Source of the DNA: a virus
Virus genome (UHGV): UHGV-1630393
DNA: 25,276 bases
Reading direction: 5' to 3' (one strand)
Shown here piece by piece: positions 21,001 to 25,276 of the stretch (positions within the stretch are counted from its first letter, which is position 1; every line of letters starts with the position of its first letter). The position numbers were made by a program.

Positions 21001-24000
21001 ACAATATTCTCGCTAGGGATATGTTCTATAGCGACAATTTCATTTTGTTCTCGCATCATGATCTGTTCAAAACCAGTAAAGGTAACGCCGCGTTGAGTTA
21101 AATAATTAACCGATGGCCTTATAGAATGAAAAATATTATTTGCTCTGATGCGATAACGGTACAATGTGCCGTGGAACCCCGAGCTTGAATAATATTGCCT
21201 AGCTATATTATAAGTTTCAATTAAACTAGTTGTCGTAGCAATAAAAGCACTGTCCCGGCTTCCTGCTGCACATGAGTCACCTCTTAAATGCTGCTGTAAA
21301 TTCCTGTTAGTACCATGAGATCTAAATCCGTCTCGAAAAATTTCGTCAGGTGGGCGAGAATCTACTCGATAAACAAAGTCTGTAGCATTAGCATACCACG
21401 AGAAAGTAATCAGGAAGAATATAACAATTTTAAACACAATATTTCACCTCTTATTGAAACATCATAACGCTATTTCCAGCAGGCAAATACAAATAAAAAG
21501 GTTAATTAGAGGATTGCATACTTCTTAGGTGAATTACTGCACCAGTTTAATTATCTATAAATATATGGAAAAGCCTACAAAAGCTAACAATGCCGAAACA
21601 TGAAACACCTCAATCAGATAAAAATCCCTGAGTTGATTCACGAATCATTCAACAGAATAAGCTAGCATAAGAAAATAGAAATTGTTAATTTCTAGCATTC
21701 ATTCTATATTTGTGGATAAAAAAACCCGCTCGGTGGCGGGTTCTTTTAAATTTGATTTTCTTTATCCACCTCGCGATACAGCTTTGCGAAGCGTATCAGA
21801 ATTAGAGCAGTTTTTGCGTAAAAAATCAAGCTATTTTCTGAGCAAATGATACTCGCATGGGAATGTATAAAGAATACTCAGCAACAGCTAACCAATTAGC
21901 AATTCGCTTTTCGCATGTACTGAAACTCCACTCTGGATGTGCGTTATTTAGCAATTGAGCCATTTTGCGCTTTGTCATCCCCCGTCCTTCATACCGTTGT
22001 CGGAGTACGTGAATCAATCCTGGATGCTCTGCCAACACTTCACTAATCACCCGATCAATGCATAACGCCTCTGCATCAGTACAGTGGGATAGCCAGCTTT
22101 TCTGCTTACCGTTAATCAGCTCCCGAAAAAATTCCTCCAGTTCAGGTTTATCAATCCCCGCTTTTTTCATTTTGCGCAAGGCTTCATTGATAGCTGTTTG
22201 TGTTATTTTTTTTGACACCAGCAACTGGTTGAACATATTCCCTGACCTGCCGCAGCCAATATACGACCAGCGTCCCCACATGCGTAACTTTCCCTGAATC
22301 CACACACTTTCCAGTGTTGCGAGACGGAGATGTTCCCCGCTTTTTCCGATATTTGTTGGGTAAATCATAAATATCCCTCATTTCTCCAGATTTCTTGCGT
22401 GCGAAAAACACCTTCTGCATGCATCAGGTGCAATTCTTCTTTGGTGTAATCGCTGGTTTTTACCCGCCCATCGATTAGATCGTGACATGAGTTACAGGCA
22501 ATCGCTGCCTGCATATCGTGTGGTTTTATCGCCATTCCACACGTCCCCGCCAGCCTGTAGTGCGCCAGCACAGATGTTTCAGGATTGTGATTGCAGTAAC
22601 CGGGGATTCTGACTGTACACATATGGCCTTTAGCCGCTTTACGCAAATCCACCATTACGCAAACTCCAGCAGCTGCGCAGCAACATTTTCGAATTGTTCC
22701 GGAGAGGAAAATTTACGGAACAGGATCCAGTTCCAAAGCACATTCAGTACGGATTTATAAACCTGCTGAAACTCGGTATCGTCCATATTTGCAAACGCGA
22801 TAGATCTTGCCCTGCGTCCACGGCTACCGTCCGGATAAAAATGCTCGGTGTAAAATCCGGCCTCAATAGTTACCCATTCACGGAAAGCATCAAATGACTT
22901 TAGCAATGCCGTATCACAGGTTCTGCGTATCGCAATGGTATTCAGATATTGTTCTGCGGCATCACTCAGGGCTGGCGTATGTTCCCGGCCGACCGAGTCA
23001 CACAGATAATCAACGAAACCGGACACAAGTTTTCGTTCACGAGAGGTGATCGCCCCACCGACAGGAGTCCAATAATCGAATCCGAGTTGCAGGAGTTTGA
23101 AAAAACGCTTGTGAAATGCGTAGTTACGAACGCGCTTAAAATCAGCGTGTATCCACTCACCTATTTTTATTTGATGCAAGAATTCGCAACTCTCCGGTGT
23201 TGCCGGGAGCAGTAATCCAGAAGAGGTATGTTTGATCAGTTGTATATGTGCCATCGGCTTTCTCCGGTGGCACGGTGTTACTCAGCAGGGGGTCAACCCT
23301 GCGCTGAATTGTAGATGAGTTCAATCGTCTTCAAAAGCAGAAAAGCCAGCTTTTAATCCAATTTCTTTTAATGTCCGTAATGATGTGACAAATTCATCTT
23401 CACGCAACATAAATCCGTCCGTCACATGCCCATTCAAGAGATATATTAACATAGCCCCACTAGGCTGTTGCAAAGCCCGTGAGCAATGAATGCAGTAACA
23501 ACTAATAATTTCCCCATTTTCAACGCGCACAGCATAGAGACCATCTTTATTAAAAATTTTGCGCAACTTCTTGAAATCCATAAATAGAAATTTTCCAGAT
23601 TAATAGCGTTCCCCTGAAGGGTCCATCCCTCTTCTCCCTGCGCGCTAACTAAGCAAACACGATTCTATTTACAACAGTCAGTCCCTCAAGACTTACGGCT
23701 AAAAGAGTACACAAAAAGCTAATTTATCCACCACAACAAAAAACCCGCCGAAGCGGGTAAGTACGGGTGCGTTGAGGATGCCTGACACATCAGAGGTGGC
23801 GGGGGATTTCTCCCCCGCCGGGTCTCTTACTCCTCAGGTTCGTAAGCTGTGAAGACAGCGACCTCCGTCTGGCCGGTTCGGATTCGTACCTCGCAGAGGT
23901 CTTTCCTCGTTACCAGTGCCGTCACTATGACGGTTAAACAGATGACGATCAGGGCGATTAACATCGCCTTTTGCTGCTTCATAGCCTGCTTCTCCTTGAC

Positions 24001-25276
24001 CTTTTGGTCGGTAAGAGGCTAATCTACGTATGCAAAGCATAGATGTGGCCTCAGATTAATGTTAAGCGTCTTGCCGGACGCATAATGTTAACTGGGGCTT
24101 TTCTCTATCTGCCTTTTGGTGTTCATGCCTGAGGCAGATAGCCTCAAGCACCCGCAGCAATTCTACTTAAGTTAGATAAGTTTTTCTACGGTATTCTCTC
24201 TGCGTCCCGTAAATAAAGTCTCGGCTCATCATTTCTATCACAGGTGCGAGGAAAATATATAGCGCCCTCCATCAAGCATAACGAAATACATTTTCCATTC
24301 ATCGCCATTCTTCAATTTAATACGAAGACTTTCCCCGCGAGTGTATTTATTAAACAACTGTTCCGATGTGCTAGTAAGAGGGATTTTTACCGTTATTACA
24401 ACTACTGCACCACCATTTAATTCTCGAAGTTCAGCATCCGCACACACAAAAGATGAATAAATGTTATGCTCTGGGTAATCAACAAGTAACAGCATATTCA
24501 TTCCTTAAATATAGCAACTAAAACAAACAACGATTTAATAGTCGGAATTTTTATATAACATAAGAACGTTGCAAGATCTATCCAGATGAAGTCCCTCCAT
24601 CCCCCTGACTCATTACATGCTTTTACTATCTCACCGTAAAACATCCTCCTCGCTTACCAGCCCGTTCTGATTCAGATGCGCCATTACCTGATCAGGCAAA
24701 CTGCTTAAACTATTGGCGTACTTTAATGAGCGGGACAGTCGCTTAATCCACATTGTCAGCTCAACAATGAGCCTGTTTTTGACCTCTCGCTCATCCAGAA
24801 GAACCATTGCAACCTCTGGATTAAAAGCTGCAATAAATTCAGCATTGGCATATGCCTGGGCACCTGTTTCAGTCAGGCAGTTAACATAACATTCTAATCA
24901 CGCCGCCAGTATCTCCCTTCCATTTTTGACAAACAAAAACCCCTGTTATATTGCCGTGCTGGTTAACTGACGCATGCCCTACGATGTAGCGTCCTTTAGT
25001 TGCTTTCTCTGCTGCTTCACGCAGCGCCTGATAGTCAATCTCGCTCATTCATCGCCCCACTCATCACAATATGCTTCGACCGGAGTTTTTCCTGCTTCAT
25101 AGTCATCACGCCATACTTCAGCATCAGCAGCACTTCCACTACGTAACTCTGCATATTCCATTAACAGTTCATGCCATTCTTCAAAACTGACGTTGTATTT
25201 AGTTGAACCAAAATCAGCCATTAGACTGGCCCCCTGAATCTCCAGACAACCAATATCACTTAAATAAGTGATAGTC

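Follow-up and report, generated by a model that had tools for sequence, protein, structure and literature searches.

The virus genome UHGV-1630393, a stretch of 25,276 nucleotides (nt) that was analysed at its full length and is called the window below, very probably contains a structurally complete hok/mok/sok type I toxin-antitoxin module of the hokD allele, as judged from the sequence of its minus strand at 23737..24188. With equal confidence we take the carrier of the module to be the early-right operon of a Rac-type prophage of Escherichia coli with the LT-II and EplBA toxins. This analysis demonstrates the sequence elements, their homology with loci already known, and the RNA pairings together with their covariation. 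The locus itself was already known: mok and hok are annotated in public records that predate our work.

A first-pass annotation had proposed a hok/mok/sok-type type I locus at 23735-24140, at the edge of the early region of the prophage. The type is borne out by a match of the toxin to the Pfam family HOK_GEF, by a match to the Rfam family RF01794 and by the canonical placement of mok and of the Sok promoter. The features within the proposed span lie where they had been placed, but the span is about 50 nt too short on the 5' side, where it misses the tac element and the hok promoter, and it should reach to approximately 24188. The position relative to the early region was roughly right, as the locus is found in the rightward early operon. 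That the whole locus is a chance reading frame with a chance promoter is ruled out by the E-values of the Pfam (1.2e-23) and Rfam (8e-25) matches.

The toxin gene and the mok reading frame

The protein-coding part of the module consists of two overlapping reading frames, each with its own Shine-Dalgarno (SD) sequence:

23827..23982, minus strand: hok toxin gene, 51 amino acids, identical to K-12 HokD (Pfam, PHROG, alignment to b1562)
23992..23996, minus strand: hok SD sequence AGGAG, read from the sequence; the homology to K-12 hokD starts here
23839..23844, minus strand: UACGAA at the Tyr47 codon of hok, candidate site of adenosine-to-inosine (A-to-I) editing by TadA, Tyr to Cys (invariance, K-12 report)
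23834..24040, minus strand: mok reading frame, 68 codons, overlapping hok out of frame (list of open reading frames)
24049..24052, minus strand: mok SD sequence GAGG, read from the sequence 8 nt 5' of the mok ATG

The 51-residue Hok-family toxin that had been noticed at 23827..23982 on the minus strand is present, and it covers the complete Pfam profile PF01848 (HOK_GEF; positions 1-42 of 42) with 82.9 bits against a cut-off of 22 (E 1.2e-23). In addition, the peptide matches PHROG 251, 'MokW-like host killing', with an E-value of 2.8e-33. A resemblance to HokD/RelF of the Qin prophage had been suggested; when the alignment was run, the coding sequence turned out to be 100% identical at the DNA level to K-12 hokD (b1562). 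In matching genomes the RefSeq label of the locus is hokD. The HokD peptide is toxic upon expression in published assays (bioRxiv 10.1101/2025.08.07.668861). By analogy with the identical K-12 peptide and with hokW-sokW, a related locus of the Stx2 prophage Sp5, this Hok would be toxic and would be neutralised by Sok through RNase III.

For comparison, 53 loci encoding Hok relatives were fetched from species-representative genomes, and 30 of them could be aligned with the window, giving a set of 31 loci. The aligned loci come from Escherichia, Shigella, Kluyvera, Pseudocitrobacter, Citrobacter, Photorhabdus and Pantoea. The UACGAA at Tyr47, which contains the TadA motif TACG, is invariant in all 31, synonymous positions included. 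In K-12 hokD, whose coding sequence is identical, A-to-I editing has been reported at this tyrosine, changing it to cysteine and thereby creating the second cysteine (PMC5630033). A second UACGAA, at the Val32-Arg33 codons (approximately 23888..23883), is unconserved.

The mok-like frame of 68 codons overlapping hok was also correctly seen in the first-pass annotation; it occupies 23834..24040 on the minus strand, with GAGG at 24052..24049. Its start is 58 nt ahead of the hok ATG and out of frame with it, and the frame matches phrog_37205 with an E-value of 1.5e-23. In the alignment of hok loci the SD sequence GAGG is invariant or nearly so. Among the relatives that retain the leader, the mok ATG is aligned in 27 of 28, and in 25 of these the frame is open for 55-70 codons. 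Two arrangements are seen. At a spacing of 58 nt, as in the window, mok is out of frame with hok (10 loci, open for 55-69 codons). At a spacing of 57 nt the two share a frame, which makes Mok a Hok with an N-terminal extension, 69-70 amino acids long; this is the case in hokC-type and hokW-type loci and in the phage Rac-SA53. According to the published view it is the translation of mok that matters and not its product (PMC9841398), and the persistence of both arrangements fits this view.

The leader and the 3' elements of the predicted hok mRNA

Around the two reading frames we find the promoter-like site, the leader elements and the 3' elements of a hok mRNA:

24160..24188, minus strand: hok (mok-hok) promoter-like site TAGAAA-17-TAGAAT (promoter scan, 9/12 matches)
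24142..24153, minus strand: predicted 5' end of the hok mRNA, with the tac element GGGUGCUUGAGG (first position of the RF01794 match)
24092..24100, minus strand: ucb or anti-SD box AAGCCCCAG, paired with the mok SD region in the full-length fold
23798..23819, minus strand: 9-bp GC hairpin GGCGGGGGA-GAAA-TCCCCCGCC, read from the sequence, eight bases past the hok stop
23765..23777, minus strand: fbi (fold-back inhibition) box CCUCAACGCACCC, paired with 24153..24142 in the minimum-energy fold and supported by covariation
23737..23758, minus strand: intrinsic terminator of the hok mRNA, ACCCGC-TTCG-GCGGGT and a T-run, hairpin 23758..23743 (terminator scan; common to K-12 hokD)

When the whole window was scanned with Rfam, a single match came up, to RF01794 'sok' (23977..24153, minus strand). 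It scores 111.1 bits (E 8e-25), far above the gathering score of 59 bits, and covers positions 1-157 of 157. Note that RF01794 is built on the strand of the hok mRNA, so the strand of the match is that of hok and not that of Sok. The family is named 'sok antitoxin' and ends at the hok AUG; it thus marks the hok leader and not the Sok gene, which is encoded by the other strand, and automatic annotation can be trapped by this. Upstream of the leader, a TAnnnT -10 box at a fixed distance of 6 nt 5' of a conserved GGGTGC is found in nearly all related loci. At the other end, the terminator hairpin that had been noted after hok is confirmed by the terminator scan (23758..23737), and the second hairpin, 9 bp long and rich in GC, lies exactly at 23798..23819.

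The predicted full-length mRNA (24153..23741, 413 nt) folds with -174 kcal/mol, a z-score of -9.1 against shuffled sequences. In this fold the first 12 nt pair with the fbi box at 23777..23765, which is the end-pairing of tac and fbi. In the consensus structure of RF01794 it is instead ucb that pairs with tac, and the sequence of the window can form this tac/ucb stem as well. The names and roles of tac, fbi, ucb and dcb, and the locks that they form, have been described for the hok mRNA of plasmid R1 (PMC9841398). Following the model of R1 hok in the same study, the GC hairpin probably serves as the stem-loop that protects the 3' end of the hok mRNA once it has been processed to the truncated form.

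These elements bear on whether the locus could be a decayed remnant of the kind seen in K-12 hokD (relF), that is, a toxin reading frame without regulation of its own that is expressed by read-through only. The reading frame is indeed identical to K-12 hokD; further, the module points the same way as the early genes that precede it in the rightward early operon, and the terminator scan predicted no terminator between these genes and the module. However, a whole 171-nt leader is present here, with the -10 box, tac, ucb, the SD sequence and ATG of mok, and the Sok promoter, and it reaches 111 bits against Rfam. In addition, the GC hairpin is perfect here while it is mismatched in K-12. We consider a remnant extremely improbable.

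The Sok antisense promoter and the predicted RNA

On the opposite strand, two features make up the antitoxin side of the module:

23996..24025, plus strand: Sok promoter, -35 box TTGACC (23996..24001), 18-nt spacer, -10 box TAATCT (24020..24025) (sequence reading, conservation)
24032..24104, plus strand: predicted Sok antisense RNA of approximately 70 nt, ends inferred (fold, analogy with sokW)

The TTGACC-18-TAATCT promoter proposed earlier for the opposite strand is present at its site. Its boxes are conserved, reading TTGACC or TTGCCT and TAATCT or TAACCT in the relatives, and the -10 box aligns with the TAACCT of the hokW-sokW locus in Stx2 phage I. The latter copy is matched by the primer and probe sequences of Takada et al., and a comparison of their mutagenic primer YO-421 with the wild type shows that the same -10 box was altered in the 'promoter-less' sokW. 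This 'promoter-less' sokW unmasked the toxicity of HokW (Takada et al. 2021, PMC8621323).

Folding of the plus strand at 24026..24110 gives -32.5 kcal/mol with a z-score of -5.2, and shows a long hairpin at 24047..24098 followed by a U-rich tail. Thus modelled, Sok is predicted to be an RNA of approximately 70 nt with a free, single-stranded 5' tail across the mok start codon; for sokW a complementary sequence of 71 nt has been reported (PMC8621323). The segment that holds the mok start and the Sok tail is the most variable part of the locus, both in comparison with hokW and among the relatives. Judging from sequence, this variability is a possible basis for the specificity of Sok between different hok copies.

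Covariation across related loci

The fold of the window was projected onto the alignment of the 31 loci, and pairs were then counted. In total 84.7% of the cells are paired, compared with 40-46% when the partners are slid by 1-3 columns; the structure was taken from the window sequence, which favours it in this control, while the double changes in distant genera are independent of that choice. Changes on both sides are seen in 46 pairs, against 29 ± 3 in shuffles, and the observed value was reached in none of 500 shuffles.

The individual elements follow the same pattern. The tac-fbi helix is 85% paired, with double changes in 4 of its 12 pairs, for instance from U:A to C:G in Photorhabdus and Pantoea. 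One base pair between ucb and the SD region is A:U in 17 sequences and has switched to G:C in 11. For the GC hairpin past the hok stop, the paired fraction is 94-97%.

Proposed mechanism and expected activity

The mechanism that we propose is modelled on hok/sok of plasmid R1 and on hokW-sokW of phage Sp5. A weak promoter at 24188..24160 would give a stable mRNA of approximately 413 nt. In this RNA the tac element at the 5' end would pair with the fbi box at the 3' end, and the ucb box would hide the ribosome-binding site of mok; as a result of this pairing and masking, we suggest, the full-length RNA would neither be translated nor bound by Sok. Slow trimming of the 3' end to the GC hairpin (23819..23798) would then remove fbi and allow the leader to refold. 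After that mok should become translatable, with the translation of hok coupled to it. As long as the element is present and transcribed normally, the short-lived Sok RNA (approximately 70 nt, plus strand, ~24032..24104) would pair at the mok start, block translation and cause cleavage. When the supply of Sok ends, either by loss of the element or by induction of the prophage, the 51-residue Hok would insert into the inner membrane and depolarise or lyse the cell. The putative biological role is prophage maintenance, help with lysis at induction, or both.

As noted above, the module has the same orientation as the early genes, with no predicted terminator in between. Read-through at induction could then silence the convergent Sok promoter by transcriptional interference and, in addition, yield 5'-extended hok RNAs without the tac-fbi lock. 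We hold this idea to be rather doubtful. If true, it would provide a direct switch from 'maintenance' to 'lysis helper' that could set the moment at which phage and the LT-II and EplBA toxins, the latter encoded just downstream, are released, and it would account for the unexplained RecA-dependent loss of sokW RNA in Sp5.

Some points weigh against an active, complete module. The transcription, processing and toxicity of this copy are what we infer. The 3'-truncated RNA (24153..23792) has a minimum-energy fold without the open tac/ucb form, and the ensemble frequency of that structure is 0.0004. Finally, a generic promoter scan of the window did not list the Sok promoter, which is sub-threshold with 8 of 12 consensus matches and a spacer of 18 nt. 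As a consensus match alone this promoter is not above chance, and its case was therefore rested on positional homology and conservation.

The simple fold of the truncated RNA, which lacks the activating refolding, is also a point in favour of a locus that is intact in sequence and yet a physiologically silent passenger without a role in the prophage; like chromosomal hokA, hokB and hokC, it might be transcribed and never kill, be it when the element is lost or when transcription is arrested. In the part of bioRxiv 10.1101/2025.08.07.668861 that summarises the work of Pedersen and Gerdes, chromosomal hok loci are described as being without post-segregational killing or rifampicin activation. 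On the other hand, all regulatory elements are intact here and under visible structural constraint, the prophage locus hokW-sokW, which is 91% identical, is active and triggered by induction (PMC8621323), and the HokD peptide is toxic on expression. Because no killing was seen in the earlier tests of chromosomal hok loci, silence stays as a minority explanation, which we judge unlikely. The complete module with the proposed regulation is the reading that we prefer.

The prophage and the distribution of the module

Within the rightward early operon, the module has the replication genes on one side and the block rem-irsA-ybcO-Q on the other. Other features of the window that characterise its carrier are:

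17475..18612, minus strand: LT-II enterotoxin A and B subunits (Pfam Enterotoxin_a E 3e-116; LT-IIB E 2e-41)
20180..21437, minus strand: pertussis-like AB5 toxin A and B subunits (annotated EplA in close relatives)
21826..22368: Q-type antiterminator

Lysis and structural genes are also encoded in the window, and both toxin operons are found between Q and the lysis genes. The two toxin operons identify the element as a Rac-type LT-II prophage of type II enterotoxigenic E. coli. The window as a whole shares 99.8% identity with a prophage of E. coli Ceylon31 and 98% with the corresponding prophages in eight further strains. The Rac-type genes recET, kilR, sieB and intR flank the element in strain 357900.

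Beyond annotation the significance of the locus is small: the window displays the K-12 hokD (relF) gene with its native regulatory leader intact. Judging from sequence features, it is a probably functional killer cassette placed in a prophage that bears both LT-II and pertussis-like enterotoxins. Should it behave as hokW-sokW does, it could affect the timing of lysis and hence the release of toxin and phage.

The neighbouring small proteins, an 86-residue 'Rem' and an 87-residue 'HP5', match no Pfam family, and Rem alone has a PHROG match, of unknown function. A protein antitoxin among the neighbouring small reading frames was considered and set aside, as nothing in the Pfam and PHROG results for Rem and HP5 is suggestive of one. 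Between the hok terminator and rem, a block 5' of rem at 23600..23700 on the minus strand is conserved with K-12 Qin (AATAGAATC ... TAGCGCGCAGGGAGAAGAGGGATGGACCCTTCAGGGGA), and inside it a promoter-like TTGAGG-16-TAGAAT is found at 23689..23662. From its sequence this block may be a promoter or leader of rem that restarts transcription past the hok terminator toward Q.

The homology with several near-identical LT-II prophages (NADC1036, SA31-1, WY517-2 and others) ends at approximately 24170, and that with hokW starts at the hok -10 box. In view of these edges, the hok/sok cassette acts as a module of a mosaic, bounded on the left by its own promoter.

Of 5426 complete E. coli genomes, 4233 have a related leader that spans 80% or more of the 178-nt regulatory region. 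An E. coli-type hokD of 95-100% identity is also seen in four records labelled Actinobacillus phage vB_Apl-pPE4 (H57, PP818812.1), Acinetobacter idrijaensis (L019), Xanthomonas pisi (L024) and 'Candidatus Scatousia' (L057), the last three on contigs of 275-2995 bp. Contamination or mislabelling is the likely explanation of these records.

Comparison with known systems

The closest annotated locus is that of 'Escherichia phage Rac' from E. coli 442/2 (MN652886.1), which is 99.5% identical over 426 nt, with few point differences. It belongs to the same type of prophage, has the same neighbourhood (HP5 - mok/hok - rem - irsA - ybcO - Q), and its mok and hok are annotated. The phage Rac-SA53 (KU052037.1) is 93% identical and also has mok and hok annotated; however, its mok ATG lies 57 nt before hok and in frame, giving a Mok of 70 amino acids, while the window has a spacing of 58 nt and the other frame. 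Sok is annotated in neither record. The LT-II prophages Rac (442/2) and Rac-SA53 were reportedly described by Jobling.

K-12 hokD (relF) of the cryptic prophage Qin has the coding sequence, the downstream hairpin, the fbi box, the terminator and the rem neighbour in common with the window. However, the homology begins only at AGGAGAAGCAGGCTATG, the hok SD sequence. Upstream of this point relB-relE takes the place of the promoter, tac, ucb, the mok start and sok in K-12, while the window has the full leader. Given that the homology starts at the hok SD sequence, with the end of relE beyond it in K-12, the window represents a hokD allele with the native leader that K-12 lacks. A truncated hokD of the K-12 kind was also considered for the window and is contradicted by this alignment.

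The absence of adjacent relBE-like genes, noted in the first-pass annotation, holds for the entire window: a tblastn search with RelB and RelE gave no match better than an E-value of 0.5. The relBE-hokD (relBEF) operon arrangement of Qin is thus absent, and the window has the hokD allele without the operon layout of K-12. A 3' end of relE fused to the hok SD sequence is also seen in loci of a Kluyvera sp. (L029) and of E. coli ECMA0423 (L045), at about 1318..1500, so the fusion of relBE and hokD is not peculiar to K-12. In the ECMA0423 locus hok is frameshifted to 15 amino acids.

The hokW-sokW locus of Stx2 prophage Sp5 shows a column identity of 91% across the 466 nt that begin with the hok -10 box and end with the fbi box. 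The order of elements is the same, and there is likewise a 51-residue toxin and an antisense RNA of approximately 71 nt (PMC8621323). The two loci differ most in the region of the mok start and the 5' tail of Sok. Further, the C-terminus of HokW reads VDYESEK, compared with TAYEPEE for Hok of the window, and the mok of hokW shares the frame of hok. The copy in Stx2 phage I differs past fbi, where it is without the ACCCGC...GCGGGT terminator. As regards the role of the module, hokW-sokW is the nearest system that has been tested: after mitomycin C treatment it loses Sok and makes Hok in a RecA-dependent manner, and it increases the release of phage approximately twofold (PMC8621323).

The toxin of plasmid R1 is distant in sequence: HokW, which is a close relative of Hok in the window, is 44% identical to R1 Hok (PMC8621323). 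The architecture and regulatory logic of R1 hok/sok, the prototype, are like those found here, a likeness drawn from the fit to the Rfam model and from published descriptions; the host element is a prophage here and a plasmid for R1. As in the window, mok of R1 is out of frame with hok.

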